Below the pieces are notes generated by a model. That model was not told the DNA's origin. It saw nothing but the letters and a program-made list of their open reading frames with translations, and did not search any database. From NCBI GenBank assembly GCA_964187785.1, contig OZ076409.1, positions 63,056,001 to 63,120,000 on the forward strand: a stretch of DNA of 64,000 nt, written 5' to 3'. The stretch's first letter is position 1; each line of letters begins with the position of its first letter. A program made the translations under genes and the position numbers. This document shows, one piece after another, positions 14,880 to 54,652 of this stretch. Source of the stretch: Amphiscolops sp. MND2022 (Eukaryota).

Positions 14880-14917
14880 TCACTCCCCGGGCTTTATGCA
14901 TGACGTCCCTGTCATGC
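14880..14917 (-). promoter_or_regulatory. Element A PPT region
   Basis: Minus strand GCATGACAGGGACGTCATGCATAAAGCCCGGGGAGTGA abuts the LTR and matches TGACGGGGACGTCA...CCCGGGGAGTGTA in element B. Confidence 0.8.
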
Positions 14918-20856: not shown

Positions 20857-20874
20857 ATCCCTCTGTGGTCGCCA
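20857..20874 (-). promoter_or_regulatory. Element A primer-binding site (tRNA-Arg-like)
   Basis: Minus strand TGGCGACCACAGAGGGAT, identical to the element B PBS, 15 nt from the LTR end. Confidence 0.85.
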
Positions 20875-20889
20875 AAAAATGAGGTCTCA

Positions 20890-32382: not shown

Positions 32383-32443
32383 TTGCTATTAGCACCGGAA
32401 GGTCGACCCCCACGAACACGTCGGCGAAGCACGGAATAAGTCA

Positions 32444-35348: not shown

Positions 35349-35425
35349 GTAAGTACCATAGTGCAAAGAAACGAAGTATTTTTTCACAAAAAATATAACA
35401 AGACGCCCGCTGAGGAGCGGGATAT

Positions 35426-36160
35426 TGTAGCGACTACCTATCGAGTGCACGATTTCGAAAATTTCGATGAAAATTTCGTTCAAGGGACTATATCTCCTCT
35501 ACTAAAGAGTCATATTCCGCCAGACGGCAGCGTGTCTTTACTCAAGTACCTGTCCACGGAATTGAAGAGGATTTGAGCAAGAGACTCGAAAGAGACCCCA
35601 ACCGAACGAGAAGATTGCAGAAAAACACGGCCACTATCAGAAAAAGACTCAAATTTCTGCCAAAACGGACTGAACTTTGTTCTAACCAGTGCTTTCTTCA
35701 GCGAAGCGTTACAAGACGCTGTGATTACCAAAAATGAGTCAATTAGCTTGACCAAGCATCCGTGCTTGTGTCCCCGGCTAATTGCTGCCTCAAAAGTGCT
35801 AATTATGTAGTAATTTTCGTATTTTCTTGTTGTAACAGCTCGTGAGCTACTCATTTCAATCTCCTGTGTAACTTCGATAAAACTTGATTTTTCCTTTCCA
35901 CCACTTGCATTTTTTTAAAGGCTGTCTAAGTGTTGATTTCGAAGAAAAAGCGTAATGCGCACTACTGATAGCAATTACAGACTGGATCAGGCCGGCGAGC
36001 ACTTCACAAGAAGCGGAATCCTCCTCTGACGGGACAGTTTTTACCCGATAGAGGCAAAATGAGCTCATGGTCATGGGCGCCTGTCCCGGGCAAATACCCA
36101 TATCATGTGTTCCTCTAACTCTTATGGTTACGGCGACAATGGTGAGAGCTTGTCGTTACA
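35426..36160 (+). repeat. Element B 5' LTR
   Basis: No differences from 53918-54652 seen by eye. Confidence 0.97.
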
Positions 36161-36176
36161 TAGAGACATCATTTTT

Positions 36177-36194
36177 TGGCGACCACAGAGGGAT
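36177..36194 (+). promoter_or_regulatory. Element B primer-binding site (tRNA-Arg-like)
   Basis: TGGCGACCACAGAGGGAT, complementary to a ...GTGGTCGCCA tRNA 3' end of the kind found in animal tRNA-Arg(UCG); 16 nt from the LTR. Confidence 0.85.
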
Positions 36195-37433
36195 CGCTTC
36201 GAAGTGCTTCCCTTAATGGTTTTAAAATAGCCGACCCTCTGGTGATTGACGCCAAGTACGACCCGACTCTGATGGAAAGAAGAGAGAACCAGAGTTTTTC
36301 CACGTTTTTACCCTGTGTGTGTCATTGAAGATTTCAACCCCGGTGGATAAAGGTAAATCTTGTAAAAAAGCGCTGTATGTTGTGATTTTCATGCTTTTTT
36401 AGTAGTTGACAGGTAACGATTGAATTAGTCTACCCTCTTAACGGGTCACTCATAATATTGGTCTAGCAAGCCGCTGGGAGGCTGCTAGAAGTGTTAACAG
36501 GTGTTTTCTAGCCTTTTTCAGCTTTTTATGACCAATGAAGTGAGTGTTGAGAAGAGGATAACCCTTACTCAGAGGAATCCTACAATCTGCCGAAACGAGT
36601 TATACGACTCACCGATCCCATTTCCCGTACAGGCAACCTAGAGAAATGAAATTTGGTGGAGACGTACTACAAATGCTGACGTGTCTAATGGTGCAACCCG
36701 CTTGTCTCTGGCTGTTCTGGGTGATGAGCAAAAAGAACGGGAAGACACGACTCGTCAGTCCGGGTTGTATGATATTTTTGAGTCAGGTTGAAAAATTTTT
36801 TTGGGTTGCTCAAAATTTTGTGTACGACCATTTGCCAATGTTTTTACGAGCCTTCTGTAACTAAGTGTGTGCTTTTGCACCAGTTTTGTGCGAAAAAAGT
36901 GCGTTTCCTCATGTATTTTCGACGAAAAGTGCCAAATTTGGCCATTTTGAGGCAAAACACCTACATGAGCGCGAGCGCTCTTGGTGCTAGCCACACACCT
37001 GCAGAAATTAAATAAAAGTAGCTCAGGACTCTAACGAGTTCGCAAAAAACGCGACGAAGTACTCAAAGTTGCCCGAAAAGGCACTTAGTATAAGTTTTGT
37101 GAGGAAGAAAACCCGTTTTTGAAAGATTGAACATTTTAGCACTTTGGACTTATGGGGGAACTTGTGTAAAAGCTTTTAAACATCCCCGCATGGTTGCAAT
37201 TAGGTTGGGGTACACCTGCCGGTACCCAACAATACTCATTTTGGTAATTATAACCACTACTTCTTGAAAAAAGTTACGAAAACTGTGATTTTAAGGTTTT
37301 TCTATAGTACTCTTAGAAGAAACCCAACTTGACATTTGACGAACACTTCTACACTTAGAATAGCCCCCGGGCTATTATTTTCAGTTTATTCAGTAAATTT
37401 AACGATCTATAGTGAAAACCGCATGCAAAAATT

Positions 37434-37592
37434 CCCATTCAGTGCTGAGAAAAGTGAAAAAACGCACTGAATTTGATCAATTTTCCACAAAACCGGACTG
37501 TCTCTGAGCTAGGGTCGGGTCATCGATTCCTGAACCCTAGCCAAAAAGTGGTTGCATTTTCGTAACCACCACCAAAATTAACGTTAGTGCCG
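37434..37592 (+). promoter_or_regulatory. Putative packaging/dimerisation signal shared with element A
   Basis: 157/159 identical to the reverse complement of 19459-19617; hairpin 37508-37541 with ATCGAT in the loop. Confidence 0.6.
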
Positions 37593-38550
37593 AAAATTTG
37601 GTGAACGTAACTTTCACCAAAATCGAGAAAAGTGCTCTAACGTTTCAACTTCAGAGGACTGTAAAACTACCGAAATAATCCAAAACTGAAGGACTGTCGG
37701 TGCCTCGTACTTAACGGGCACATCTATTCGAGGGTTTATTCTAGTATTACGAGTAGTGGGGCAACACGTAGATCCCATTTTTTCAACCCTACCACTTTTT
37801 GAGGTGACCCTCTTAGCCAATTTGTGAAGAAAGTAGCCTAAGATTGTTTTTCTTTATGAGTGTCGTCCAAGTAAGGTCGAAACCTCAAATAAGCGTCCGC
37901 GCTTTCTTTTGATGGTCTCACCGGCATTGTACACACTCATCGGCTGTAACTACAAAGTTTCGTGTCAATCCAACCGGTACTTGGTGAGAAAATAGAAAAA
38001 ACGTACCACTCAAAAAGCTGGGCATAGAGGGTGATTTTTCAAATTTTTCCCGAGTGATCCGAATACCTTAATTGAAAAACGAGGTTGAATTACAGTTCAT
38101 TTCTACCATTTGTACCAGATATTACGTTGTTTTGCAAATTTTGAGCCCGCCAGCTTTTTTTCAGTAGAGCACAATCTCGAAATAAGCATGACAATTGATG
38201 TATTTTGATGACTGAAGGTACCGAACGTCCGGATCAACCTAAATCTTGAAATAAAAACCCTAGCTTGGATTTAATTTTGCTATCGTGTAGTACACCTACC
38301 ACAAGGTCAGGTGGCCAATTTTCAAGTGTTTCCGACGATTAGACGTTGCGTTCGAGGGATCTTAGTCATTTCCAAAGAAATTTAAAAAACTCAAAAATTG
38401 TCTAAAAACCCAATTGTTTGCGAATCAGCTATTCCGTAAGCCCCAAACGCACGGTTTCCGGCCCCACACCACGGTATCAACACGCTGTGTAAGTTTCACG
38501 CCGGTACGACCCCTAGATCGATTTTTGACTTTTTCGAGACGTGCGAAATC

Positions 38551-40257
38551 ATGAAACCCAACAGTTTGCGTAACCTTTGGATTTCCATAACGAGAACATT
38601 AGGCCGCGCGAACACCCAGCGACGCTCTAATCATTCAAGAGGGGGGAGGAAGGACATCTCGCGATGCACTGAAACATCAAAGACACCAGATCCAACGGGG
38701 TGCGAGACAAACCTCAGTGCAATATCAGACTTGACCTCAGATCCCAAGGAGGAAGATTGGCCAACTGATGACAGTTTCATTATGGAACCCGATTTTTCAG
38801 ACCCTATGTCAGACGACGCATCGGAGGAATATCAAGCCAAGCCGGTTGCCAAGACTACCGATGATATCGGAGGTTCAGCAGACGAAACAGGAAGTCAGGC
38901 GCACACGTCCAAATGGTTACAAGAACTCACCAAAGTAGCCGTCACACCTTTCGGTACTGACGAAGCAGGAACATGGCCCAACTCCAACAGGACAAACGCT
39001 GAGGAAGAAACTGAAATGAGTTGCTTGAATGCCACTGGACAACTCAAAGCTCCCAGCGTGGCCAGCGAGAGCACTGCGAACACGGCAGAGATATTGCAGC
39101 AAATGTCCTATGTCGGGGGTATGAACTATGCCAAGACACGTCTTCAAGAAGCTACAGCCCCCCGAGCATCTGGGAAGGGTAAGCAAGTACGGCCTCCAGC
39201 CTTACTAGCACAGACTGGCACTACAGGACCTCATGGCGACTCGCGCTCATCCTCACCTTCATCAAAAGCTGCATCTGCCCGATCTTCAGCATATCGAGCC
39301 GTACATGAAGCAGCGAAAGCACGCAAAGCTCTGTTAGATGCCCAGATAGGCGTGAAGCAAGCTGCTTCACAACTGTCTGAGCGTAAAGCAAGATGCGACA
39401 GAGAGCATCAGTCAATAATGGAAGAGATAGAAGCCGTACAAACTGAACTGCGAACTTCGACTGAGCGACAAGCGCAAGGACATGAAATTCAGGCAGCTCG
39501 AATGGATGCCATGGGTTATCGAATGGCCGAAATAAAAGACATGGTGACCGAAAGAGAGGTGCGCATGGAAGCTCAACTGCAAGAGGTATGTTCACAGATA
39601 CAAGCAATGGGCACCATGTTGAAAAATATCCAACCTCAACCCGCACCAGTAAGCAACACTATCAAAGAATTGCTGCAAGACACTAATATATCACTGCCAA
39701 AACCCATGAAAAGCGTCTCCCTCAAACCAAAAGAGAGTGTGACGATTTCGACAAACCCATCTGGCTCTAAACAACACTTGGCTAGGTACGCGCCCTTGCC
39801 ACAAACTCTGGTCTCAAATGGAGAAGCTGCGTCAACATCGACGAAATTTATCCCATCTGCGGTATCAACAAAAAATATTCCACCCACAACCAAAACTCAC
39901 AAGAAAGAACCAACATGCGAGGTGATAACTATCGACACTTCAAGCATGGGTATTAGCGACCTGCGAGAGCCCACACGCGCAAACATGCTAACCGAAGTCA
40001 CTAGCACCTTCCAAACAGCAAATGCAACTTTGGGAGAATCAGCTGCAGAATTCCAAACCGCGAACGACGAATTACCCTCGGGCAACCCATGCGCTAGCAG
40101 TACTCGACGCCGAGAAGTGACTCTCCCCGAGAACACTCTGTCAACTCAACGCGAGGCAGCAGTATCCCGCCACCAGCTATCAGCGAAGAAACGCCTATAT
40201 CACCGGAGCAACTCAGGTTTACCGAGGCAATATCTAAAGCCATGTCCAAGGAACTAG
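38551..40257 (+). CDS. Element B ORF1 (568 aa): low-complexity/coiled-coil protein, probably the N-terminal part of Gag
   Basis: Long ORF after the leader with a central heptad-rich helix (ARKALLDAQIG...IQAMGTML); overlaps ORF2 in the -1 frame. Confidence 0.75.
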   Translation: MKPNSLRNLWISITRTLGRANTQRRSNHSRGGRKDISRCTETSKTPDPTGCETNLSAISDLTSDPKEEDWPTDDSFIMEPDFSDPMSDDASEEYQAKPVAKTTDDIGGSADETGSQAHTSKWLQELTKVAVTPFGTDEAGTWPNSNRTNAEEETEMSCLNATGQLKAPSVASESTANTAEILQQMSYVGGMNYAKTRLQEATAPRASGKGKQVRPPALLAQTGTTGPHGDSRSSSPSSKAASARSSAYRAVHEAAKARKALLDAQIGVKQAASQLSERKARCDREHQSIMEEIEAVQTELRTSTERQAQGHEIQAARMDAMGYRMAEIKDMVTEREVRMEAQLQEVCSQIQAMGTMLKNIQPQPAPVSNTIKELLQDTNISLPKPMKSVSLKPKESVTISTNPSGSKQHLARYAPLPQTLVSNGEAASTSTKFIPSAVSTKNIPPTTKTHKKEPTCEVITIDTSSMGISDLREPTRANMLTEVTSTFQTANATLGESAAEFQTANDELPSGNPCASSTRRREVTLPENTLSTQREAAVSRHQLSAKKRLYHRSNSGLPRQYLKPCPRN

Positions 40258-43200
40258 CACCGCTGATTGCTAATCGAGACCAAACTAGGGTGCGCCCTAC
40301 GGTATACAAAGGCACTAAAGATGGTTCTGTCGATGGATGGCTCCCAGTGATGAAGCGATTTCTAGAAAGGGTGCATGCAAAATCCCCAAAAATCGACAGA
40401 GCCTGGGCTATCATCGACCACCTGGAAGGAGAGGCGAGAAATTATATTATCAACAAATCTGAACCTGAACGAGACGAGCCCGACAAGGTATTCTCTCTCT
40501 TGGCCAGCAGATTTGGAACCGGTGGGAATCGCATGCACGTAAGGCAAACCTTCATGTCTCGTGTCCAACAGGAAAAAGAAGATTGGATGCAATTCCTGGA
40601 CGCATTAGAAGGTCTGCGCACCCAAGGTTTCCCAGATGAGCCTATCACTACACGTCGTTATGAGATCCTGCAACGTTTTATAGATGGTGTCAATGATCCG
40701 ACGCTGCGACAAGAGTTGGCCGTGGTATACGCTGCAGAGGCATATCTGACCGAACCACCAACTGTAGAATCCCTAAGGTTCACCACGAGACAATTGCAAC
40801 GGCATCGCCCAAACACGTCAAAACCTTACGACCCAAGGTATGCAATGAGATCGAGGCCTCATCCTTTCGTGCCAGGAAAATTGGTTCATCCAGCACCAGG
40901 CCTACCGCAAAACGTACTACCTCCTAACCAAGGACAACGAGAGGCTAAACCCCAAATGGCTCCACCAGCCCCTGCATCAGTAAAACAGGCTCCTGCACAA
41001 CAGCAACCAGCGAGAGTGGTTCCCCAAGGAGCATGCTTCAACTGTGGGCTACCAGGTCACTTTGCAAGGGAATGCCCAAGTCGAGACCTAGCAAGGAAAC
41101 CAGCGGCTCGCGCTGCACCTGAAGAGCGAGTAAACTTATGTGAGAATAATGTGGCCTCTGCATGTTCTGGCCCCGTATTCTGTGTAAATTGTGGCATGAC
41201 TGAACACTCTGCATCACAATGCCAAAATGTTCCAGTACATGAGGATTTGGCCTACAGCCTCTGGGCTGAACAGCCACCTGCTTCTCAAACAATGAGCGAC
41301 AGTGAAATGGTACTTATGCTTCGTCCTGCTGAAACCGCTCATGTGGCAACGCCCCTTACCGTCACATGTGGCAAGATTCAAATCCAGACGAACCCGGAGC
41401 CAACTACTTTTGATCCCTCGGGACGCACTATCATGTCTGTCCGATTACTATTGGCGATTGAGAGGGAAACCCGCCCAGAACTCACCATAGACGCCCTGAT
41501 AGACGAGATAACCGCAAACGAGAATTGCCGACAATTGACCCTGCCCCAACCGGAAGAATGGCAGGTAAAAGGTGTCACTTCGACGTATCATGCCTATTCT
41601 CCGATTCCAGTCAAAGTTTGCATAGATGGTGTTGACATGCGTTTTGGTGCCACTATCATTACTGACGCATTTCCTCCTGGAATCTGCTTGGGACCACAGG
41701 AGCTGCGCTGCTATAACATTGATGCTCAAGAACCAACTGGTGAAGCGAGAATCGATGAGCGTGCGTCGCTCGTAGTTTCATTCGTGGTTCCCGATGCTGC
41801 TCCCGTGCCATTACGTGGTCTGATAGACACTGGATCAGGAGTGTCCATCCTCACCTTCTCAGCCTACAATCGAGTCGCTGTGCGCACTGGGACACTCTTA
41901 CGACCTTATGGTATTGACTTGTATGCCGCGAATGGGAAAACGATCAAAACTTTTGGTCTAGCGGAGAAAGTCAAGTTCCAATTGGGAGGCTACGAACTGG
42001 AAACTAACTTCGTGGTAGTTGACGACGCCATGGGAGTGGAAGACTTCCTCCTGGGCAGAAACTTCCTAAGAGCTTATCAAGTCTTGGTGGATCTAACCGC
42101 GATGAAGGTCATTGTCCGAGCTCCGTCTGAACCAGTGTGGTACCATGCCCACACACAAGTAAGTAACGAATCACTCAATTCGTCGGTAGCGATTGCACAG
42201 GACGTAGTGTTGCAACCTTTTGAACGCGCAATACTACGCGCTAAACTGCTTGTAGACAACTTAGAACCTTTCATATTTCGAACCGTGCTAATCAATTTCC
42301 AAACACCTAACCGAATGTTAAAAAACGCCATCTTTTTAGAGGACACCGTGGCGACCGTGGGGGAGACTGGCTTCCTTTACGTCAGTTTAGGAAATCTTAC
42401 CAGCAACGTGCAGCGGATTAAAAAGGGCACCCTTTTAGGAACCGCGGTACCCGTAACGATGGTTCACAAAGCCATCCCCCAAATTGTCCCCGGACAATCA
42501 AGTGAAACTCAGCAGTCAAATGCAAATTATGTTTGTAAAGTTTACGAACAGATGAACCTTGACTCCTCTTCTGAATATAGTTCTTCATCTGAATTTGAGT
42601 TTTTGTCCTCTACCGAACCGTCAGAACTAGGCTTGTCCGAGCGCGAAGTAAAAAAACGAACCGATCCGGCGTTAATGGCTCCGATACCGGGCCCGGAAGC
42701 ACAACTCGACGAAGTGCGCGGTTTGTGGGGATCGACCGCCAGCGACACGCTTAGTAAACTTTTGAATGAATTTGATGATTTGTTTATGAAATTCAAAGCC
42801 GATATTGGTAAGTGTAAAATCGCCAAGCACCCGGTGGAAGTAGAGCCAGGGGCTGTACCCCACCGTGAAGGTGCAAGACGAATGTCGCCTGACAAGGCAG
42901 AACGTGCAAACCAAGAAGTCCGTGACCTGCTAGCTTTGGGAATGATACAGCCTTCTCTATCCCCTTGGGCGAGTGGAATCGTCATGGTCAAAAAGAAGAG
43001 TGGTGAATTGCGATTCTGTTGTGACTTTCGACCACTTAATGAAGTGACCATCAAAGACGCTTATCCCTTGCCACGTATCGATGAAAGTCTATCCAGATTG
43101 GGCAAAGCCAAAATCTATACTAGTATTGACTTGGCATGGGCATTCTGGCAAATTCCTGTCCGAAAAGCAGATCGTCAAAAGACTGCCTTCGCTTGTGAAC

Positions 43201-46200
43201 TTGGGTTATTTGAGTGGCGGCGTATGCCTTTTGGTATGTGTAACGCATCAGCAACATTTCAACGGGCAATAGCGCGAGCGCTACAAAGAATAGTGAACCG
43301 TGAAGGAAGTATGGTTATGGCCTACATCGATGACATTGTGATTGCTACCGAGACCATCGAGGATCACATGGATAGACTACGCGAAGTATTCCAATGCCTG
43401 CGTGAGGCCGGGTTCAAAATGAGAGTCTCCAAGTGTGACTTCATGAAATCGGAGATCAAATATTTGGGCCGGGTCGTATCCGCAGATGGTATCAAGCCAG
43501 ATCCAAAAGCTGTCACCAAGCTGAAAGAATGGGATATCCCGCGAACCAAAACTGAATTGCAAAGTTTCTTGGGTTTTGCCAACTACTATCGGGATTTTAT
43601 CCCATGGCATGCAAAACTAGTTGCCCCTTTACACGCGATAACGGGAGGAGCCTCTTCATTTTTATGGGGGGAGGAGCAGCAGCGAGCCTTCAACAGCATC
43701 AAAGTGGCACTAATGGAAGCCACCGCTCTGGCGCAACCTGACACTGAAGGCGAATTTGTTCTCGACACGGATGCTAGTGGTGTAGCTATATCGGGTATTC
43801 TGCACCAATGGCAAGGACCACCTGAGAGTCGCAAACTGCGACCGATTGTATTCGGAAGCAAAAAATTAACTGCTACGCAAGCAAAGTATGGAGCCCCAAA
43901 ATTGGAAATGTATGCTGCATACTATTTCATCTTGAAAAACCACAGTTACCTCTGTCCACGAAAATTCACACTGAGGGTAGATAATCAGGCCCTATCCTGG
44001 CTAAAAACATATTCGATGGATCAGGCGATTATCGGTCGATGGATTATGGCTCTTGAAAAATATCACTTCAGCATTGAGCATCGACCCAGAACGCAACATC
44101 GAAATGCTGATGGTCTTAGCAAACGAACAAATGATTACAAAAAACACGAAAAGCAACTAAAAGGCTTACCCGCAATTGCAGACAAATGGGATTTCCTGTC
44201 ACAGGAGGAATATAACAAACTCCCGCTAGCCCCATGGTTCGACGTCCACGGACGCGTGATACCAAATCATCCAGAATTGCCTGCACACTTGCAGAGGTTG
44301 GGTAGCCAATGTTCACCCGAGACCACAGTTGCCGCTCTCTCGCGAAAGAGCGGAGGAAGCAAACGAAATGCAACCATACGCGAGGAAGCCATGAGAGCGC
44401 CTCTACCTACATTGCCAAAACCAGAATTGACACTGCCCGCCGAACTTTATCCAGAATATCCTGAGGATTGGTTAGAACTGACCGAGGAATATCAACGAGA
44501 CTATCTACTCCCCACGCATGCTGCTAACGTACCATCAAGAACCACTTACCCACTAATGGAAAAGCAAGCAACTAGCACTGCACCAGAGCACGTAAAACAA
44601 GCCGCGTTTGTGGTAAACAGCATATCAATGGAACTGCATGAACATGCTAACACAGTCCATGGATTGAAGGATCTACTACTAGCACAAAACCGTGACGTCC
44701 ATATATTGGCCATCAAGAAATTGGTAATGCAAGAATCAATAGATAATGACGTCTTTCCGGAAAATGTGCGCACCTTTGCCAAAAACTACCACAAACAGAA
44801 GAAGAACCTCCTACTGATAAACGCCAACGGGATTTTGTGTGTAAAATACTCCAAAACTCAAAGAGCTTTGCATGAACGCCCCTGTATGATAGTGATGCCA
44901 CAATTGTATCAGCATGAGATACTATTCAAGGCCCACGACGCGATGGGACATCAGGGCATCGCGAAAGTCTTGGCCAGAATTCAAGAGCGCCACACTTGGC
45001 CAGGCATCCGCCGCACCATTGGACAATACGTCAGTCAATGTATCACTTGTCAACAAGTACGCGACAAGCCTGGTGATGTACGCTTTCACTTGAAAAATAT
45101 CCAAAGCGGTTATTTCAACGAGCTAGTCCAATATGACCACATGAAAATTTGTCCCTCTGATGATGGTAACACAGGGATATTGGTTATTATCGATCATTTC
45201 TCTAAGCTCGCAGAAGCTGTGCCATGTAACCACGATGAGTACGATGCAGCGACCACTTCAAAGTTGTTGTTGCAGAAGTGGTTTGCCCGCCATGGAACGC
45301 CAACGAGGATGCAGTCAGACAATGCTCCCAATTTCACCGCGGCAGTATCTGCTGAGTTTATGAAAGCAGCCCAAGTGACCAAAGTAACCTCAACTGCTGG
45401 CCACCCCAGGACTCAAGGGTTGGTAGAACGACAAAACCGAACGCTACTCACCCTACTGCGTGTATTCTGCTCTAGACGAATGCGTGACTGGGATCAGTAC
45501 CTAGATGAAGTTATGGGTGCATACAACTCCACACGTCATGCCACTACTGGATTTTCCCCGTATATGCTGACCAGAGGCATGGAAAAAGCTATACCCCTGA
45601 CTTTTTTGTATCCGGAATTTGCAACTCAGTCATTCGAATCACACGAAGCCTATGTGGAACATGTGCTGGCTCGACAACAAGAGATTCATGACTTAGTCCG
45701 TCGCAACACGCATCAAGCCCAACAACGACAAAAATTGAAGTACGACAGAGCAATTCGTGCTAAGGCCTACGAAGTGGGCGAACCTGTTTGGGTATTCTGC
45801 CGATACATTCCTCAAAAGGGATCTCCCAAATTGATGAGAGCGTGGCGTGGTCCTCACAAGGTAGCACGAGTGCTACAAGAGGGACGTGTTTACATACTTG
45901 ACACTGGGCAGAAAGTGCATTTCGAACGATTGAAACCGCATCATGGTGGTCCAACAGAATGGGCAGCTGTTCCTGCGCATAACGGCGAGGTTGCTATTAT
46001 CATGGACCCTGATCCAGAACAATCCCATGAGGAGGTGAGAGACGATGCTTCACAACCTTCTTACCGTGCAGAGGAACCAATTTCGGAAGCCAGTGATGCC
46101 TCTTTGCCTTCTCGACAAAGACATTGGATGGACACACGGTTACGCACACACATGCGCGCAGGTGGCAGCCGCCTACATTATCAACAATTTGGCTACTCTT

Positions 46201-48311
46201 CGACTGAGTCTGACGATGAACGTTCTGATGTACTCCTATCGAGTGCTCAAACAAATCCTGACGAAAGTGTCATCTTGCCATCACAAGCAGACGAGCCTGC
46301 GCCTATTCCCGAAATGCCAATATCACCACTACCTGCTATGGAGGCTCTATTTTCAGAGAATGAAGCAGTACCAGACGCATTAGATGTCGCCCCGAATCCT
46401 AATATCCACGTACCCACCGAAAGTGCCGCCACTTCTTTGACCGGTACATCCGCCCCATTATTGACAAATCCATCTCTTACGGATATGTTGAGTAACTTTC
46501 CCATTTGGCCCCTAATCGATGACAATGACCTCAACCCAACCCTGGACGACGACGGTGCCGATACACCAACGACCAATAACGAAAAGGGATCAATTCCCCC
46601 TGTAACAAATCCCATCAACAATGATGCAGCTACTACCACGAAACTCCCCAATGCTCCTAGAGGGCGTGGACCCCGGGGACGTCCGCCAGGCAGAGCAAGG
46701 CCGCGAGCCTCGCTACCACGTGGTCACCAACGGAGAGGTGCTATTAGAGGCACTCGCAAAAGAGGCCGTCCCAGAGGTAGACCTCCTCGTACAACGCACG
46801 CCAGACCTAACACTCCTACCCATATTCGTAACACTCCATCAATGGACACTGACTCTTCTGCCCCTAGCGCGGCGGTTACCTCAGATCAGGCAGCACCACC
46901 AGAATCGACCAACGCTCATTATGGACTGCGACGCAATCGTATTCCCAGATATCGTTGCGGAACATGTGGCCTACGAAACTGCGAATGTAACTACATGGTC
47001 CACGCGGGCTTCCCAATCGAATCCCAGGGAGTCCTACTAGCACGTGAACAGGAGAAACCACTTCCGAGCGGAATGGTTGACCGTTTGATTATTCGAGCCG
47101 AGAAAACCTACACTGGGCTACAACGCAGTGACACTCCATATCCCGTGGACTATATCCTATCCAAAATGAAGGATTCTACGATAGCAAGGGCTCCGTGCCC
47201 AAGGTTCAAGGAGTGGACCTATGATCTTGTTGGTTTGGAGTTCACCTTACCCATCACTGTTCCCCCTTTGCCTACAAATATTGCTTTTGGTCCTTTCAAC
47301 TATGAGCGAGAGCCTATCCAAATGATACGCTGTATTCCTGCTGACCTCTTGTACGACAAATACAACGTCACAGCAAAACCAGGAGACGTTTATCAGCCTA
47401 CAAGCAACTGGTGGCTACTAGTTACGGCCAAACAAGCATCCGACTTGGTTCATCCCACTAACTTGAACACCTGTCTGGAGAGTTTGCGGACGATGGCCTC
47501 TCCTGATAAAATCACTTGTTTCCACACGATAGACCTATATCGTGGTAAAATTAAGTTTGAATGGTGGCTGGAACTTATTATAGCAGTTTTATCAAATTTC
47601 TCACGAATCAGATTCCTGGACGAATGGACACACTCATTTCCTAGTCCTGTATCCCTCCAATCGGCCCTGCACGCACTGGATACATGGTCCAGGGCTAACA
47701 TTGATAATCAATCATTGCCGCGATCTGTATGGCAAGATTTGGGCGCAATCAAGGGCCTCCTCCCGAATGCATGTGACGATGCTCTTTCCAAGGACCCCGG
47801 ACGAGAGTTAGTGTACCATGGAGCCGCGAGACCTCAATTGGTTGACTATGTGCAGTATGCCAATACGGACTTCCTGCAGACTCCCCATCATATCGTTTTA
47901 TGTTGTCCTGCAAATCTGGAAACTAGTTCTGCCTCTCTTCGTTACGTCATTCGTGAGCATGGTGCAGATGCAATCTTTCAACTTCGACCGGAGGTTGGCA
48001 ATATTGTAACGCTACCCACGTCTTTGATAGACGGCCATCCTCAGACTATCCACCTTTTAATCACACGAGCTACACCTCGCTGCCCTATGCTCGCTGATAT
48101 TCTTTTTGGATGTCTTGATCATTTGAAAACGTTACTCGAGCGCTTGGAGGCGATAGAAGTACACTTTGCCATCGTTGATCCTGAACGCCCAATACGTAAT
48201 CTTTTTGATTTGTATGCCTGTTTGATGGACGTATTCGCCGACACCCCCCTGACCGTCGTTCTTCACGATCGCGTTTACGTATCTATTGCAAGCGTCGCTA
48301 GCTTTCCGTAA
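40242..48311 (+). CDS. gag-pol: Element B Gag-Pol polyprotein (2689 aa from ATG; frame open from 40098)
   Basis: Capsid-like region; CCHC knuckles at 41034 and 41181; protease LIDTGSG (41820); RT with MPFG and YIDD (43323); RNase H (LDTDAS...ELE-like KLEM...NADGLS); integrase HHCC (44934-45050), DDE core and WRGPHKV; ~780-aa extension. Confidence 0.97.
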   Translation: MSKELAPLIANRDQTRVRPTVYKGTKDGSVDGWLPVMKRFLERVHAKSPKIDRAWAIIDHLEGEARNYIINKSEPERDEPDKVFSLLASRFGTGGNRMHVRQTFMSRVQQEKEDWMQFLDALEGLRTQGFPDEPITTRRYEILQRFIDGVNDPTLRQELAVVYAAEAYLTEPPTVESLRFTTRQLQRHRPNTSKPYDPRYAMRSRPHPFVPGKLVHPAPGLPQNVLPPNQGQREAKPQMAPPAPASVKQAPAQQQPARVVPQGACFNCGLPGHFARECPSRDLARKPAARAAPEERVNLCENNVASACSGPVFCVNCGMTEHSASQCQNVPVHEDLAYSLWAEQPPASQTMSDSEMVLMLRPAETAHVATPLTVTCGKIQIQTNPEPTTFDPSGRTIMSVRLLLAIERETRPELTIDALIDEITANENCRQLTLPQPEEWQVKGVTSTYHAYSPIPVKVCIDGVDMRFGATIITDAFPPGICLGPQELRCYNIDAQEPTGEARIDERASLVVSFVVPDAAPVPLRGLIDTGSGVSILTFSAYNRVAVRTGTLLRPYGIDLYAANGKTIKTFGLAEKVKFQLGGYELETNFVVVDDAMGVEDFLLGRNFLRAYQVLVDLTAMKVIVRAPSEPVWYHAHTQVSNESLNSSVAIAQDVVLQPFERAILRAKLLVDNLEPFIFRTVLINFQTPNRMLKNAIFLEDTVATVGETGFLYVSLGNLTSNVQRIKKGTLLGTAVPVTMVHKAIPQIVPGQSSETQQSNANYVCKVYEQMNLDSSSEYSSSSEFEFLSSTEPSELGLSEREVKKRTDPALMAPIPGPEAQLDEVRGLWGSTASDTLSKLLNEFDDLFMKFKADIGKCKIAKHPVEVEPGAVPHREGARRMSPDKAERANQEVRDLLALGMIQPSLSPWASGIVMVKKKSGELRFCCDFRPLNEVTIKDAYPLPRIDESLSRLGKAKIYTSIDLAWAFWQIPVRKADRQKTAFACELGLFEWRRMPFGMCNASATFQRAIARALQRIVNREGSMVMAYIDDIVIATETIEDHMDRLREVFQCLREAGFKMRVSKCDFMKSEIKYLGRVVSADGIKPDPKAVTKLKEWDIPRTKTELQSFLGFANYYRDFIPWHAKLVAPLHAITGGASSFLWGEEQQRAFNSIKVALMEATALAQPDTEGEFVLDTDASGVAISGILHQWQGPPESRKLRPIVFGSKKLTATQAKYGAPKLEMYAAYYFILKNHSYLCPRKFTLRVDNQALSWLKTYSMDQAIIGRWIMALEKYHFSIEHRPRTQHRNADGLSKRTNDYKKHEKQLKGLPAIADKWDFLSQEEYNKLPLAPWFDVHGRVIPNHPELPAHLQRLGSQCSPETTVAALSRKSGGSKRNATIREEAMRAPLPTLPKPELTLPAELYPEYPEDWLELTEEYQRDYLLPTHAANVPSRTTYPLMEKQATSTAPEHVKQAAFVVNSISMELHEHANTVHGLKDLLLAQNRDVHILAIKKLVMQESIDNDVFPENVRTFAKNYHKQKKNLLLINANGILCVKYSKTQRALHERPCMIVMPQLYQHEILFKAHDAMGHQGIAKVLARIQERHTWPGIRRTIGQYVSQCITCQQVRDKPGDVRFHLKNIQSGYFNELVQYDHMKICPSDDGNTGILVIIDHFSKLAEAVPCNHDEYDAATTSKLLLQKWFARHGTPTRMQSDNAPNFTAAVSAEFMKAAQVTKVTSTAGHPRTQGLVERQNRTLLTLLRVFCSRRMRDWDQYLDEVMGAYNSTRHATTGFSPYMLTRGMEKAIPLTFLYPEFATQSFESHEAYVEHVLARQQEIHDLVRRNTHQAQQRQKLKYDRAIRAKAYEVGEPVWVFCRYIPQKGSPKLMRAWRGPHKVARVLQEGRVYILDTGQKVHFERLKPHHGGPTEWAAVPAHNGEVAIIMDPDPEQSHEEVRDDASQPSYRAEEPISEASDASLPSRQRHWMDTRLRTHMRAGGSRLHYQQFGYSSTESDDERSDVLLSSAQTNPDESVILPSQADEPAPIPEMPISPLPAMEALFSENEAVPDALDVAPNPNIHVPTESAATSLTGTSAPLLTNPSLTDMLSNFPIWPLIDDNDLNPTLDDDGADTPTTNNEKGSIPPVTNPINNDAATTTKLPNAPRGRGPRGRPPGRARPRASLPRGHQRRGAIRGTRKRGRPRGRPPRTTHARPNTPTHIRNTPSMDTDSSAPSAAVTSDQAAPPESTNAHYGLRRNRIPRYRCGTCGLRNCECNYMVHAGFPIESQGVLLAREQEKPLPSGMVDRLIIRAEKTYTGLQRSDTPYPVDYILSKMKDSTIARAPCPRFKEWTYDLVGLEFTLPITVPPLPTNIAFGPFNYEREPIQMIRCIPADLLYDKYNVTAKPGDVYQPTSNWWLLVTAKQASDLVHPTNLNTCLESLRTMASPDKITCFHTIDLYRGKIKFEWWLELIIAVLSNFSRIRFLDEWTHSFPSPVSLQSALHALDTWSRANIDNQSLPRSVWQDLGAIKGLLPNACDDALSKDPGRELVYHGAARPQLVDYVQYANTDFLQTPHHIVLCCPANLETSSASLRYVIREHGADAIFQLRPEVGNIVTLPTSLIDGHPQTIHLLITRATPRCPMLADILFGCLDHLKTLLERLEAIEVHFAIVDPERPIRNLFDLYACLMDVFADTPLTVVLHDRVYVSIASVASFP

Positions 48312-48539
48312 AACTTTCGTTTGTCCGCTTTCTTTTTTTTGTTTTTCGTTTTTTTTGTCCGCTCGATTAAGTTTAGTGAATCGATACGAAGTTTATTTGA
48401 GACTATTACGTTATCTTTTTCTTTAATGTTAATGTGTAACATTCTATTACTTTCCCTGGTATTACCCTTAAATGACCTATGGTGTTACCCTACTATCAAG
48501 TGTGCTACAATCGACCTACGCTCTTTCAGAACTGTCGTC

Positions 48540-51500
48540 ATGAACCAAGATAATGATAGAAGCAACAACGTCCCGCCGAGGTCTACAGACAACTCTCCTG
48601 CCTTGGGGCAACGCGTCTATGACACTGCGCGTGTCCAACGCACCCCACAAATTGCCTTTATTCGAGACAGACTCGACCAAGGTCTGTCGCCAGCTGCAGT
48701 GGCCGGGGTAGCAGCAATAATTGCCCAGATGGAATCACAATTGCAAGCCCCAATGCTAACGATATCAATTACCTCAGGGTTTCCTGGATTTCAACGATCC
48801 ATGACGTACCAAGATGGAGTGTGGCACGGCCATGATCTTACGCATCACTTCACAGATGATCGTGCGGCGATCTCGTATAGTCTTGCGAATGGCGGAGTCC
48901 ACCAGACTAGACCTTTACAGATCCCTTCTTGCCCGCCTCCACCTCCACCGCCACCTCCTGTACCAACACCACAAGCAGTAGTGCGCGCGCGCACTCCTGC
49001 TCCTATGGTGCCTAGCCTGCCCAATCAATCTATGGCGGAGCAAGCAGTCATTTCAGCGCTACAAGCAGTGGCTGCCAATCCCAATTACGATGACTTCATG
49101 CGATCCATGGAGCAGTGTTGGCCAGAGCTACGTCGAATTGCTCTGCCCACTGTCACTATTCGTAACGACAATGCGACTTCAACTGAAACACGTCAAGGTG
49201 TCATCACTATTCCCCACATCAATCCTCAGTCTGAACAGCCAGGACACTCCCGCACCGTGACTGTGGAACGCAGTCGTTCGCCTTCCCGCTCTTCTCAAAA
49301 GGGGGGAGGAGAGAGCCGCCCTGCCTCCAGAAAGCGCAACGACCCCTCCCCAACAAAGAAGACTCAACAACCATTGACTGCCCGTGACAGCCCCTCGAGC
49401 AAGCCACCACCCGACAAAAAGATTTCCAACGAGAAGGCCACAACCTCCAAAGCGCCAGACCAAACGAAGTCAAAAGTGTCGGAAGCATGCGTGCTTCCCT
49501 CACCCCAATCACAACCGGACGTGACAGGCGAGCAACAAGGACTGCCGCAACCACCATCCACGCAGTCTACAACACGCGAGTCGCTGGCTCAACGAGCGAC
49601 TCCTAAGCCCTCCACGTCAGGACAGCCACAATCGGAGCAAACTGTGGGTTATCAAGGCACCCCTGTATCCCAGCGAACTGTCAAGGACATAATGGGTGAT
49701 TACCCAGGGTTGAAAGTGACCAACAGTGGTCCAACTGGAACCCCACTCCGGAAACAGGCGATTCAACATCCAACTAAGAGGACCTTTACGAAACAGCCGA
49801 CGTACCTGAGCCCCATGCAGAACACAAAGGGCACATTGGTCACCAAGGATTCCCGACGTATCTGGGAATCGGCAGTTATAGTATCGCCCGAATGGCTATT
49901 TGAGAAAAACATGTGTCCTCCAAGTGACGAAGAGCACGCGAAACTGAAGAAGGCAAATGTACCCGTATTCATGAATCGTCCAATCCGCCCAGACCACACT
50001 CCTACCAATGAGCCGGCATGGCTAGGGAAGGCAATGAATATGCTGCCAAACGTGGATGACAATTACCTAGATGCCCTCAACGTTGACCTTCGTGGGCAAT
50101 TCGCCGATCGATATTTTCTCAACGCTGGAGAGACCTTTGAGATCAACCCACGGTACGCCCGTGATCTCGAAGCCCAGCTACCAATGCCAAAAGAAAGGTT
50201 GCAGCGTGCGCGCTTCGCCTTACTTATTGACTCAACATTCCTCAAGAATGTCCCCATCGACAACGTGTTGTCAGACGTGATGGTTTTTACTCTACCGCTG
50301 TCACGTATTCCCGAGATGGCCGAAGTGTTGGTCACCATGTTTGACCCTGAGATGACAGGAACCTTCAAAGAGCCACCTCCACGTAGAGTGATCATCAGCA
50401 ACGTTTTCGATCACATGGCCTGTGAAGGACTAATGGCCCAGATCGCGAACGTTGAGATTATGAATCCAAGTCCGGCTCAGCGAACAACGGTACGCAATGC
50501 AGCATTGAACATGGCCCGAGCCATGGAGAAAGCCCAAAACATCTTGAAAGACAAACTCAAGGTGCCAGCCCTGTTCGTGACACCCCCAGGTTTTTGCCAA
50601 TGGCCCCCCGCCTTGCAGAGATTCATATACATGGTGACAGAAGTTTGCAAGTGCAGAGAAATAGACTTTGCGATCTGCGCGCCCAATATGCGGATTAGCT
50701 CCAATGACTTTCGCCCCTCCTGGCTGTCCTACATGGGGTACATTGCCTCAGTGTCTAAAGTGCTACAGTCAGTAGAGAAAACAGGGAACGCGCAGCTGAC
50801 AATCGACGATGCCATTTACTTTGATCACGGCACTCGCATGGGCTTGTTGGTGTTCAACAAGGACGGAGAAAGGCGAGTCCCAGAGCCCAGTACGGCCGAA
50901 TGCGAGGCAATCCGCCTGAATAACTGGATAGAGCGCGCGCGCTCATCCGGTGGAAAGACTTGTATCAAAACCGATCTTGCAGAAGTCACTGCCACAATGA
51001 GCAAAGTCCCCAGCGACCGAGAAGTAGAACGAGCCATCCCGCGAGTTCAATTTGCCAAGGACCTCACAATCGATCAATTATCAGTGGGAATGAAGTACAT
51101 TGCTGCTAAATTGACGAGCGAAACTCAGGCTGAAATCCAAGCCTTCAGCAGCACCTACGACGCCTGGTACCAGCGGCTACAAACTACCACCGTAGCAGAC
51201 ATTGCAAAAGAGCTTGGGATGTCAACCGACCAGTTTGCCATCTGTTTGGGATTGGGTTGGAGTCCCGATGTTATTCGAGTCGAGTTCGATTTAGAGGAGA
51301 GTTGGTTGATCGAAATCAGCGAGATTATCGGTACCGTGCAGGTGAACGAACTCTTTGCACTGATGCTCACTTTCGGGCAGAAACGCTTTGTAGCTGGCCC
51401 AATGATGATATTGACTGACCTGGTTACCGAGTGTAATCTGGAATGGCTATTTTCATATCTGGTGATTGCACGAGGGAATATCTCAGGTCTAACCGCCCTA

Positions 51501-52907
51501 GCCAAGCTGTTGCAACGGAAAGACGCTCAGGATTATCCCGCTCACCTGGAGCGTATGACAACTTCATTGTATCACTGGATGTATTGCAGTCTGGTCTTTG
51601 CCTCGGGACTCTTCGTGGGGGTGGATAAGCACCAACCGTTATATGATGGACGTCAGCTAGTGACCGAGGTAGCTGGATTTTTGACACCCAACCAGCTGGC
51701 AGATTTCACTTTGGCTGAAGTCGAAGATCTTATACCGGTGTTAGCACCCGTGCTAACTCCGATATTTGGCCCAACCGGGATACTCCGATACCCCACCAAG
51801 CCTCTGAGACTGGCCTCGGAGACGTTAACGGTATCCATCCTAACTTATCTGAAGAACGTAAAACCACACAACTATCAACAGATGCTTGAACGTGGGCTGT
51901 TTCTGCTAGTACCACGTATGTATACCACAATAAAGAATGAGACACAGCAAGACGAAAACCTGGCCGGTATTCTCAAAGCCCGAACAAAGAAGGCGTGCCC
52001 TTTACCTCGCGAATACGGCCCGGTGAATTGGTATAATTCTCCCCTAGACCACCTCGGAATCCCACAGCGATTCAATTGGAGTTTCGCACACCTCAGGAAG
52101 TACGTGACCGAGTGTGTGCAAACCATGGGCGGTCACACGAATCAGGAGTACAATTTCCAAATGATTAAGCTTCCAGCCAGGTACTGGCGAGGACCCATCG
52201 GTTATATCCGGGCCAAGCCAATCAGTATGGTCGAGAAGGGCTTTGATGAGCAGTATGCCTATCGCGACCACTACAAACTTGGCGTGTGGATGTCAAGAAC
52301 CCTGGAGGAGCGCCAAGGACGCCTAAGAGGTTTAATCATCCCCCCACTGACAATGCCTTTTTGGAATCCAGAGGCGAGGGTTACTATGGGAAGCGACATG
52401 CCAGCGGAGACTTGCTACCACGTCATGGAATTGCTAAGTGATCCCCTCGGACCCGAATGGGAAGCCTCTAGGCAAATCATAGAGCATGCGAATAGGGACA
52501 ACTGGTCCAGAGCCTGCGGGCTCTGGGGCCGACCTGATCTACGCCCGAAACTCAGTGCGAAACAGAAACGACCCATTGCCACCCGCAATAGACCGCTGGA
52601 TCTACCGCACTTGTTTAATGCTAGTAGACTGGATGTACAGATCCCAATCTCCACATCAACCACAAGTTCTGCCAATGTTAGCGGCTCAGCCAATGCAGCG
52701 CAAGAACATTCGCCAGAAGCATCAACTCCGGTAGCCGCAGAAAATGGCCCTGGTGGCTCAAACACGGCTCCTAGGACCCATGAAACTGCCAGCGCAGAAC
52801 CAAAGCCAGTCCTGCGAGGAGGAAATACGCGAAGAGGATCTCTGTCTGAACTGCAACCAAAGGCAGACGTTTCCCCCAGAGCGCGTCACTCCTCTGCCAC
52901 CCAGTAA
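48540..52907 (+). CDS. Element B ORF3 (~1455 aa) of unknown function with a degenerate SGNH/GDSL-like domain
   Basis: Intact frame from 48321 to 52907 between pol and the PPT; probable start ATG 48540 (MNQDNDR), where composition changes, 10 nt after a CTCTTTCAG acceptor. Confidence 0.85.
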   Translation: MNQDNDRSNNVPPRSTDNSPALGQRVYDTARVQRTPQIAFIRDRLDQGLSPAAVAGVAAIIAQMESQLQAPMLTISITSGFPGFQRSMTYQDGVWHGHDLTHHFTDDRAAISYSLANGGVHQTRPLQIPSCPPPPPPPPPVPTPQAVVRARTPAPMVPSLPNQSMAEQAVISALQAVAANPNYDDFMRSMEQCWPELRRIALPTVTIRNDNATSTETRQGVITIPHINPQSEQPGHSRTVTVERSRSPSRSSQKGGGESRPASRKRNDPSPTKKTQQPLTARDSPSSKPPPDKKISNEKATTSKAPDQTKSKVSEACVLPSPQSQPDVTGEQQGLPQPPSTQSTTRESLAQRATPKPSTSGQPQSEQTVGYQGTPVSQRTVKDIMGDYPGLKVTNSGPTGTPLRKQAIQHPTKRTFTKQPTYLSPMQNTKGTLVTKDSRRIWESAVIVSPEWLFEKNMCPPSDEEHAKLKKANVPVFMNRPIRPDHTPTNEPAWLGKAMNMLPNVDDNYLDALNVDLRGQFADRYFLNAGETFEINPRYARDLEAQLPMPKERLQRARFALLIDSTFLKNVPIDNVLSDVMVFTLPLSRIPEMAEVLVTMFDPEMTGTFKEPPPRRVIISNVFDHMACEGLMAQIANVEIMNPSPAQRTTVRNAALNMARAMEKAQNILKDKLKVPALFVTPPGFCQWPPALQRFIYMVTEVCKCREIDFAICAPNMRISSNDFRPSWLSYMGYIASVSKVLQSVEKTGNAQLTIDDAIYFDHGTRMGLLVFNKDGERRVPEPSTAECEAIRLNNWIERARSSGGKTCIKTDLAEVTATMSKVPSDREVERAIPRVQFAKDLTIDQLSVGMKYIAAKLTSETQAEIQAFSSTYDAWYQRLQTTTVADIAKELGMSTDQFAICLGLGWSPDVIRVEFDLEESWLIEISEIIGTVQVNELFALMLTFGQKRFVAGPMMILTDLVTECNLEWLFSYLVIARGNISGLTALAKLLQRKDAQDYPAHLERMTTSLYHWMYCSLVFASGLFVGVDKHQPLYDGRQLVTEVAGFLTPNQLADFTLAEVEDLIPVLAPVLTPIFGPTGILRYPTKPLRLASETLTVSILTYLKNVKPHNYQQMLERGLFLLVPRMYTTIKNETQQDENLAGILKARTKKACPLPREYGPVNWYNSPLDHLGIPQRFNWSFAHLRKYVTECVQTMGGHTNQEYNFQMIKLPARYWRGPIGYIRAKPISMVEKGFDEQYAYRDHYKLGVWMSRTLEERQGRLRGLIIPPLTMPFWNPEARVTMGSDMPAETCYHVMELLSDPLGPEWEASRQIIEHANRDNWSRACGLWGRPDLRPKLSAKQKRPIATRNRPLDLPHLFNASRLDVQIPISTSTTSSANVSGSANAAQEHSPEASTPVAAENGPGGSNTAPRTHETASAEPKPVLRGGNTRRGSLSELQPKADVSPRARHSSATQ

Positions 52908-53880
52908 AACAGAACTAACTTTGTCGTCATTCAATTTCCAACTTCAATAGTCTTATGCTAGATAAAATTTTGCGAAATCTCATGGTTTCAATCTCTGTTG
53001 TTGCTAAGCTTCGATTATGGAAATGCCAATTGGTCATGGGTAAAAATCTCCGAGTGGAGATGAAGCCCCCGGGCTTCATCTTCCTTGTTATTCCGTTTTG
53101 GGACCGGCAACCCAACCATGAAACTGCGTTCTTGCCTTGCCTTAGTTAGATGCAATATTCAATTTGCAATTTGTGTTTGCAGTTAGTGCTTTTTCATGCT
53201 ACTTCATGCTACATGTGGATGCGCTGTGCGCACTCCGTGCTCTAAATTTTCGGTGCTATTACACCCTTTTAGTTGCTAGTTATCGTTTACACTGTTGCCA
53301 CTGTCGAAAAAGATAAAAAGAAAAGATAAAGGAAAAGGAAACAAGGAGGGAGAGATGAGAAATGAATAGAATAAAAAGATTGATGAACCTCGACCATTGT
53401 TTTTCTTGAGCTGCCTGACAGGATCGAGAGTAAGTCTCGCAAAAGAAATTTTAAATTGACCGTACTAATTAATTGATTTTATGGCAACTGCTTACCAAAA
53501 GAACTTTTATCAAACGCCAAGCAGTGCGAAGCTCCCGAGCTTCGGAGAATATGTTTCGAACAGTCATGTGATGGTCGTTGACCTTAAAACAAGTTTTAAC
53601 GCTAACGGCAAATAAAAACTTTTTTTGAATGGCCGAAAAGAAATTTTAACGCCTGAATTGCTCACGACAGGCTACAAAAAGCAATGACTTTGCCGTATAA
53701 GATTTGTGTACAAAGTTGTATTGATTTGATCAAAATGCAGCAACGCTGGGTCAAAAATACTTCCACGAGGCCAATTTGACGATGTCTCGATGAACCGCCC
53801 AGCGCTATTTGATGTGCACTCTACCTCCTCAGTGGGACACAGATGACTCTGGGTACAGACTCAATGACGCCAACCCACAC

Positions 53881-53917
53881 TTGACGGGGACGTCAAGACT
53901 AGACCCCGGGGAGTGTA
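53881..53917 (+). promoter_or_regulatory. Element B PPT region
   Basis: TTGACGGGGACGTCAA hairpin then CCCCGGGGAGTGTA immediately before the 3' LTR. Confidence 0.8.
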
Positions 53918-54652
53918 TGTAGCGACTACCTATCGAGTGCACGATTTCGAAAATTTCGATGAAAATTTCGTTCAAGGGACTATATCTCCTCTACTAAAGA
54001 GTCATATTCCGCCAGACGGCAGCGTGTCTTTACTCAAGTACCTGTCCACGGAATTGAAGAGGATTTGAGCAAGAGACTCGAAAGAGACCCCAACCGAACG
54101 AGAAGATTGCAGAAAAACACGGCCACTATCAGAAAAAGACTCAAATTTCTGCCAAAACGGACTGAACTTTGTTCTAACCAGTGCTTTCTTCAGCGAAGCG
54201 TTACAAGACGCTGTGATTACCAAAAATGAGTCAATTAGCTTGACCAAGCATCCGTGCTTGTGTCCCCGGCTAATTGCTGCCTCAAAAGTGCTAATTATGT
54301 AGTAATTTTCGTATTTTCTTGTTGTAACAGCTCGTGAGCTACTCATTTCAATCTCCTGTGTAACTTCGATAAAACTTGATTTTTCCTTTCCACCACTTGC
54401 ATTTTTTTAAAGGCTGTCTAAGTGTTGATTTCGAAGAAAAAGCGTAATGCGCACTACTGATAGCAATTACAGACTGGATCAGGCCGGCGAGCACTTCACA
54501 AGAAGCGGAATCCTCCTCTGACGGGACAGTTTTTACCCGATAGAGGCAAAATGAGCTCATGGTCATGGGCGCCTGTCCCGGGCAAATACCCATATCATGT
54601 GTTCCTCTAACTCTTATGGTTACGGCGACAATGGTGAGAGCTTGTCGTTACA
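53918..54652 (+). repeat. Element B 3' LTR
   Basis: 735-bp direct repeat of 35426-36160. Confidence 0.97.

Follow-up and report, generated by a model that had tools for sequence, protein, structure and literature searches.

Two LTR elements in the window

The window, i.e., the whole stretch of 64,000 nucleotides analysed here, carries two LTR elements on opposite strands, referred to as B and A, with the following features:

35426..54652, plus strand: element B, a coding LTR retrotransposon of 19.2 kb with PR-RT-RH-INT order and TG...CA ends
36177..36194, plus strand: primer-binding site (PBS) of B, separated from the LTR by 16 nt and matching the 3' end of host tRNA-Arg(TCG) with 18 complementary nt
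38440..40257, plus strand: first open frame of B, 605 aa between stop codons, without a Pfam family
40098..48311, plus strand: gag-pol frame of B, 2737 aa, with zinc knuckles, protease, RT, RNase H and integrase
48312..52907, plus strand: third open frame of B, 1531 aa between stop codons, without a Pfam family
14108..21661, minus strand: element A, a non-coding LTR element of 7.6 kb with TG...CA ends and without a recognisable gag/pol remnant

The LTRs of B (735 nt; 35426-36160 and 53918-54652) are identical to each other, and the element is bracketed by the 3-nt direct repeat TAT (35423-35425 and 54653-54655). Its PR-RT-RH-INT order, TG...CA LTRs, tRNA primer site and purine tract are those of Ty3/Gypsy elements (Metaviridae), and its named protein matches, at 35-41% identity, have the same Pfam set; within the Gag region, only the zinc knuckle resembles solved structures. 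Approximately 800 additional residues are encoded by gag-pol 3' of the integrase core, and at 40098-40257 the first frame and gag-pol overlap in different frames in the window copy, with a single long frame being present in L130 and L139 (L-numbers denote sampled genome loci). Element A has LTRs of 772 nt that are 99.2% alike (20890-21661 and 14108-14879), the same 18-nt primer site for host tRNA-Arg(TCG) as B (20857-20874) and a 3-nt direct repeat, AAA (21662-21664 and 14105-14107); no open frame in it exceeds 163 aa. Across families, 15-16 nt of family-specific spacer separate the LTR from the primer site, and the tRNA-Arg(TCG) genes of the host are arrayed in tandem on contig C9, a few hundred copies at intervals of ~173 nt. 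The window further contains a long interrupted inverted repeat (31870-32385), foldback/MITE-like, with arms that are 88-90% complementary, and two tandem arrays (2334-3173 and 12376-12816) with units of ~29 nt and ~170 nt.

Instead of the 4-6-bp target-site duplication of Ty3/Gypsy elements, a 3-bp duplication surrounds both window elements and each of the 9 further B copies for which both ends were found (10 tried; L191-L210). L140 shows the same pattern, L129 departs from it by one mismatch, and L126 lacks it. A 3-bp duplication has been described as peculiar to Troyka (PMC12440569), which, according to that description, is also alike in its PR-RT-RH-IN order and has CG...CG ends, LTRs of 100-400 nt, internal parts of at most 7.7 kb and a CX2CX8-10HX4C knuckle. 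As Troyka is characterized in that source, membership is ruled out by the TG...CA ends, the LTRs of 735-772 nt, the internal part of 17.8 kb and the CX2CX4HX4C zinc knuckles of the elements studied here. A literature phrase search on a 3-bp duplication with TG...CA ends returned nothing relevant. The clade possibly represents an undescribed lineage.

A near-identical block in the two leaders

Between the PBS and gag of B, starting ~1.25 kb behind the PBS, lies a leader module containing a block that is shared with element A. The block and the hairpins predicted in and around it are as follows:

19459..19617, minus strand: copy of the block in A, with the counterpart of hairpin H2 at 19510-19543
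37437..37472, plus strand: H1, predicted, CAGTGC/GCACTG stem with a purine-rich 18-nt loop
37508..37541, plus strand: H2, predicted, lower stem of 8 bp, the top forming either a 9-nt loop or 5 bp and a 3-nt loop
37522..37527, plus strand: ATCGAT, a palindrome in the A/C/B1 version only; the base at 37524 is C, T or A according to lineage
37548..37569, plus strand: H3, predicted, inside the block
37597..37621, plus strand: H4, predicted, mostly outside the patch described below, with several pairs broken in other lineages
37700..37721, plus strand: H5, predicted, GTGCC/GGCAC, in the diverged flank

The original prediction regarded the block as an ultra-conserved packaging and dimer initiation signal (Psi/DIS) built around a kissing-loop hairpin. 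The observations that it started from were reproduced: there are 2 mismatches in 159 positions (at 37457 and 37547) when 37434-37592 is compared with the reverse complement of 19459-19617, an identity far above chance, and ATCGAT lies in the two copies at 37522-37527 and 19524-19529. In 50-nt windows, the two copies are 94-100% identical within the block and ~60-80% identical in its flanks, in agreement with the flank divergence reported earlier. The block is located at the same site 3' of the PBS in several families and is therefore not an unrelated dispersed repeat inserted into both elements.

The family letters A-E, G, B0 and B1 are labels made for this analysis: B1 is the block version of window B, and B0 is the other version, present in B-family copies with the same flanks. 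In the 1.07-Gb genome, exact H2 stems of the A/C/B1 type have 854 matches, and the junction of LTR end and primer site occurs at 3691 sites, some of them with leaders that lack the exact hairpin. Of the 190 sampled loci, among which 5 places occur twice, 168 contain the module. The same genome harbors further coding families, namely C (RT-RH ~87% identical), D (~75%) and E. Many of the 40 consecutive H2-stem matches examined belong to coding family C, the leader of which is 88-91% like that of A and contains the block. Four copies (L139, L133, L130 and L128) have an RT 97-100% identical to that of B, yet carry the B0 version, and other elements with LTR pairs ~7-8 kb apart (L125, L129 and L140) keep versions of the module. 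For P0036 (57% family), no close copy was found in this genome, the best reaching 52-53%. Many A and C copies (L061-L106) have two tandem units ~180 nt apart upstream of the block, including the start of H1; there are three such units in L082, two in L087, which has a B backbone, and one full unit in the window copies of A and B.

Predicted structure of the module

The hairpin H2, with the loop TCATCGATT, and the CAGTGC...GCACTG stem of H1 appear in the predicted folds of both window copies, H2 in the minimum-energy as well as the centroid folds, in keeping with the original prediction. The stem TTTGGTGA...TCACCAAA (H4), also put forward there, is present, but it lies just outside the block, and A has a stem mismatch in addition to the loop difference that had been pointed out; H3 had not been listed. 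The fold z-scores of the two copies (217 nt) are -4.4 and -2.8, with 1 and 2 of 200 shuffles, respectively, being as good.

In an alignment of 37 copies, hand-picked to span the lineages (37 of the 40 listed, from 168 loci), 91.6% of the cells are paired with the helices as drawn, compared with 28-46% in slid controls; none of the 500 shuffles, which ignore relatedness, was as high. G·U occurs in at least 8 loci at 10 pairs and A·C at 1 pair, and the respective totals in the 168 loci, near-copies included, are 623 and 93 cells. This bias of G·U over A·C points to structure on the sense RNA strand. Compensatory double changes are few, with approximately one lineage-level event in H2, the lower stem of which has A-U in place of G-C at 37512/37537 throughout the B0 lineage. 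H2 and a portion of H3 were reproduced by RNAalifold, whereas H1, H4 and the full H5 were not obtained as drawn, the regions of H1 and H4 being paired differently. The two registers of the H2 top cannot be separated by pair counts (91.6% paired with the 9-nt loop and 91.9% with the 3-nt loop). Predicted energies favor the 9-nt loop in A, C and G, and 5 bp with an AUN loop in B0 and L125; the B0 top is predicted to be closed into the 3-nt loop with probabilities of 0.68-0.92. A scan of 36100-38600 against Rfam gave 5 weak matches, none at the family threshold. Long-range partners for the H2 loop were also sought: 8-nt complements were found in 3 of 9 copies, in different places, none of them common.

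Eleven loci were searched with a profile of the module, which gave a homologue (E-values of 4e-10 to 6e-7) in 8, all of D/E type, and one further match, a partial C-type unit. The D/E homologues retain short motifs (e.g., GAAAACCGC, GAGAAA and ACGT), and neither the H2 fold nor the palindrome was found in the aligned region; a scan of the D/E leaders for hairpins with palindromic loops revealed none that is kept in both families. Families D and E (L108:3620-4490 compared with L114) share a leader segment of ~870 nt that is mostly 85-98% identical, with flanks at ~50-70%, and this high-identity zone, which may reflect either recombination or constraint, contains the remote module homologue and a second partial copy. 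According to these folds and alignments, the module is structured but moderately conserved.

The loop palindrome differs between lineages

A loop palindrome that varies between copies had been named beforehand as an outcome that would speak against the original interpretation, and at the level of whole lineages the palindrome does vary. Hand counts among the matches listed gave ATCGAT in 98 of 100 A/C/B1 stems (854 in total); ATTGAT in 95, ACTGAT in 2, and ATCGAT, ATTAAT and GTTGAT in 1 each per 100 B0 stems (198 in total); and ATAGAT in 43, ATTGAT in 37, ATCGAT in 4, ATTAAT in 3 and other sequences in 13 per 100 G stems (131 in total). True palindromes thus account for 2 of 100 (B0) and 7 of 100 (G) among the matches listed. 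ATCAAT is absent from both the B0 and the G matches listed, so that the variants do not represent CpG decay of single copies, and block identity among the ATAGAT copies around L143 is 97-99%. The loop variants are states passed down within lineages that have multiplied. Position 37524 can be C, U or A, and G37525 is constant. The predicted self-duplex energies are -4.3 kcal/mol for AUCGAU, +0.6 kcal/mol for AUUGAU and +2.2 kcal/mol for AUAGAU. Within the leader of B, 166 of the 2229 9-mers (7.4%) contain a 6-nt palindrome, so that finding one in a 9-nt loop carries little weight on its own. Of the other 6-nt palindromes, the lineages have only AAATTT, at the base of a stem, in common, and no G/C-rich one.

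Mosaic structure of the leader of B

The near-identity of the blocks of A and B would be explained if the subfamily of B had taken over the A/C version through a double crossover, and the leader of window B has the corresponding mosaic structure:

37417..37584, plus strand: very probable recombination patch, A/C-type alleles in a B backbone, with crossovers mapped to 37411-37417 and 37584-37605

B0 can be told from A/C at 70 sites. To the left of the patch, window B has the B allele at all 13 of these; within 37417-37584 it has the A/C allele at 23 of 24, and on the right the B allele at 32 of 33. A comparison of window B with the copy L179 gives 36 differences among the 193 positions of 37412-37604, against 30 among the 2045 positions of the remaining leader. 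A hand count of 75 exact matches at the right junction yielded 30 patched and 45 unpatched copies, none of them mixed. The ratio of block to flank divergence is 0.07 for B1-A and 2.35 for B1-B0, compared with 0.40-1.11 in the 15 lineage pairs without B1; in the B1-A block, 21-33 differences would be expected under vertical descent, and 2 are seen. Given that block divergence between the unrecombined lineages has a median of 0.62 times the flank rate, the designation 'ultra-conserved' is not justified.

The 11 B rows group together on a single branch (100/100) in the right-flank tree, whereas in the block tree the 5 patched (B1) rows fall among the A/C rows, the block of L028 being identical to that of the A-type L062. 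Counting against a transfer, an approximately unbiased (AU) test on the block tree does not reject B1 and B0 as one side of a branch (p 0.155), which is attributable to the long branch of B0. The patched lineages (window B, L028, L029/L030 and L087) have a common right border and different left borders, which may reflect several captures or one capture that was trimmed later. The nearest donors of the window patch are A-type copies (4 differences in 193), and the Jukes-Cantor distance of the B1 block is 0.025 to A and 0.049 to C; the C copies are older and less sampled, and the donor is possibly a C subfamily outside the sample.

Taken together, the recombination and sliding-window identity analyses that had been suggested for this locus delimit a mosaic with mapped borders and are in line with the earlier proposal that the block was refreshed by recombination, which very probably took place into the subfamily of B. 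The accompanying proposal, that the satellite must match the signal of the coding element, fared differently: since the leader of coding family C has the block, the copy in A needs no matching to B. To judge from the alleles, the flow at this patch is into the coding element, not into the satellite.

Exchange is also apparent elsewhere in these elements. Four A-type elements (L062, L069, L074 and L081) carry the LTR end and PBS of B1 at 96-100% identity (approximately -250 to +110 from the LTR end), and the presence of the U5/PBS of B in A-type elements implies exchange in both directions. LTR swapping in plant LTR retrotransposons has reportedly been described in a soybean study. A second capture by a coding family is seen in L138, in which a B-like backbone (RT 96% identical to that of B) is combined with a ~1.3-kb leader segment, at offsets of ~1200-2600 from the LTR end, that is 73-94% like L137/L129.

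Possible roles of the module

We propose that the block forms the central part of a leader element, predicted to fold into several hairpins, in a clade of large Ty3/Gypsy-type LTR retrotransposons, and that the A/C version reached B's subfamily by template switching in particles containing both RNAs, co-packaging and switching being inferred. Template switching between co-packaged RNAs is an established route to such mosaics, as described in PMC5874298 and PMC6894440; gene conversion between chromosomal copies could yield the same mosaic. The module would then likely be a packaging signal recognised by Gag, for which the palindromic loop would not be needed. Retroviral packaging signals are described as multi-stem-loop leader elements read by Gag (PMC12789967), and the module resembles them in being a predicted stem-loop cluster in the 5' leader, present in the genomic RNA to judge from its position, and in being kept by non-coding elements (A and the versions in L125, L129 and L140). 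Its start is further from the PBS than the dimer and packaging regions described in the literature consulted. On the strength of position, sense-strand structure, retention in non-coding elements and retroviral precedent, we assign a packaging role to the module with moderate confidence, and the whole reading, i.e., a structured leader module that was recombined in and serves as a Gag-recognised packaging signal without the need for a Watson-Crick kissing loop, seems to us about evenly poised. Of the Psi/DIS interpretation offered originally, a structured leader element common to a coding element and its non-coding partner is retained, and the conserved palindrome is not.

Several other readings of the same observations were weighed against this one. 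It is distinctly unlikely that the H2 loop is a dimer initiation site of the HIV type, with the RNAs kissing via AUCGAU and the crossovers clustering because the RNAs are held together. Such a site would fit the geometry of the loop (2+6+1 nt, with the palindrome predicted to be unpaired in window B, 0.96), the prevalence of ATCGAT among the listed A/C/B1 hairpins, and the position of both crossovers within ~100 nt of H2. These flank H2 at ~45-65 nt on the 3' side and 85-100 nt or more on the 5' side, with none inside, and the common right border may be one event. The central N·G is C-G, U·G or A·G at the lineage level and never G·G, and the extended duplex is predicted to be favored over two monomers in 4 of 4 folded copies. 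There are also precedents: template switching in MuLV is described as favoring palindromic contact sites, kissing loops with two G-C pairs exist in that virus (PMC5874298), and Ty3 is reported to dimerise via a 6-nt palindrome in a hairpin top (PMC11381356). Nevertheless, the palindrome is lost in B0 (ATTGAT, 95 of 100 listed) and G (ATAGAT or ATTGAT, 80 of 100 listed), the predicted self-duplexes of these loops are unfavorable, the B0 top is predicted to be closed, the motif is missing from the D/E homologues, and the four A-U pairs and flanking pyrimidines are unlike HIV-1 sites; the existence of related families without the loop palindrome makes a kissing-loop role doubtful. A role of the module in the sense RNA other than packaging, be it internal ribosome entry, given the great length of the leader, or the export of unspliced RNA from the nucleus, we consider unlikely. 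Between the LTR and position 38550 there are 22 ATGs, 16 of them upstream of the module and 1 inside it, the evidence for sense-strand structure fits equally well, and export would explain retention in non-coding elements; however, the module is retained by numerous copies of non-coding A-type elements, which argues against translation, as do the ~950 nt and 5 ATGs that separate it from the first in-frame ATG, and no Rfam family reached its threshold.

A DNA-level enhancer or internal promoter, with the mosaic arising by gene conversion between chromosomal copies, would account for the short motifs kept even in D and E, where the fold is not, and short conversion tracts would resemble the patch; we nonetheless hold it to be very unlikely, the excess of G·U over A·C not being expected from selection at the DNA level, and the U5/PBS swap (A2 elements) and the patch being situated at reverse-transcription sites or between shared motifs. 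Least probable of all, to the point of being hardly credible, is that nothing recombined into B1, the block being ancestral and under very strong selection and the B0 version foreign or fast-evolving. The AU test and the long branch of B0 are compatible with such a history, and the G lineages have many A/C-type ('a') alleles, but the B1-A block distance (0.025) is below that of A-C (0.047) though the B-A flank distance is 3.6 times that of A-C, the Poisson chance of at most 2 differences at the lowest observed rate ratio is 1.4e-7, and the identical blocks of L028 and L062, together with the different left borders of the patched lineages, tell against it as well.

Building on the packaging-signal reading, one may picture a contest in which satellites evolve versions of the signal that compete for particles, coding families repeatedly recapture these by template switching, and satellites in turn take the helper U5/PBS. 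This scenario is tentative and, in our estimate, unlikely to be correct; equally tentatively, B1 would in that case derive from A-type elements and the L138 family from L137/L129-type elements.

Comparison with known systems

Retroviral psi/DIS elements (HIV-1 SL1 and MuLV SL-A to SL-D), as described in PMC5874298 and PMC12789967, are likewise made up of several 5'-leader stem-loops, and the likeness extends to a 9-nt loop with a 6-nt palindrome, here confined to the window copies and the A/C/B1 group, where it is predicted to be apical, and to recombination near the element. They differ in that the palindrome studied here is rich in A/U, has no purines beside it and has disappeared from two lineages that multiplied, and in that the module lies ~1.25 kb behind the PBS and is known from sequence and predicted folds. 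For the HIV-1 DIS, central G-C pairs are reported to be needed, more than one A-U pair to replicate poorly and purines to flank the palindrome (PMC5874298); AUCGAU contains four A-U pairs, with UC and U on its two sides, and self-complementarity is not maintained across the replicating lineages. The DS/PAL6 of yeast Ty3 also belongs to a Ty3/Gypsy element and has a 6-nt palindrome at a hairpin top, but it is CUGCAG, lies within the first 400 nt and was tested by deletion, whereas the palindrome here is not kept across lineages; according to the same source, the packaging and dimer sequences of Ty3 are not precisely defined (PMC11381356).

Closer parallels to the mosaic are provided by partner pararetroviruses of grasses, whose diverged genomes share a near-identical non-coding segment that is ascribed to region-specific recombination and not to selection (PMC5491270). 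These caulimovirid relatives are described as swapping whole intergenic regions, unlike the patch of ~170-190 nt inside the leader of an LTR retrotransposon observed here. Autonomous and non-autonomous LTR retrotransposons of plants also show template switching and module exchange across families (PMC13570524, PMC6894440), and the transfer of U5/PBS into A2 elements is of the same kind as the LTR swapping and module exchange described for them; the block, by comparison, is an internal structured module that moved, as we propose, into a coding family. The exchange of non-coding parts between partner elements is thus already known (PMC6894440, PMC5491270, PMC13570524), and new here are the short internal module, its apparent movement into coding families and the natural loop series. 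Searches of open-access text turned up no Gypsy element in which a module inside the leader passes from a satellite to its helper.

Implications

Packaging and dimer signals have been mapped for few LTR retrotransposons. In the clade described here, the recombination history marks a candidate signal of ~200 nt and supplies natural variants of its stem and loop. It also suggests that cis-sequence moves from non-coding partners into coding families and carries a caution, namely that a near-identical block shared by a helper and a satellite can be a recent patch and not the product of deep conservation. Should the tentative contest between satellites and coding families prove true, the three loop versions would constitute a natural panel demonstrating that packaging of a Gypsy genome does not require a Watson-Crick kissing loop.
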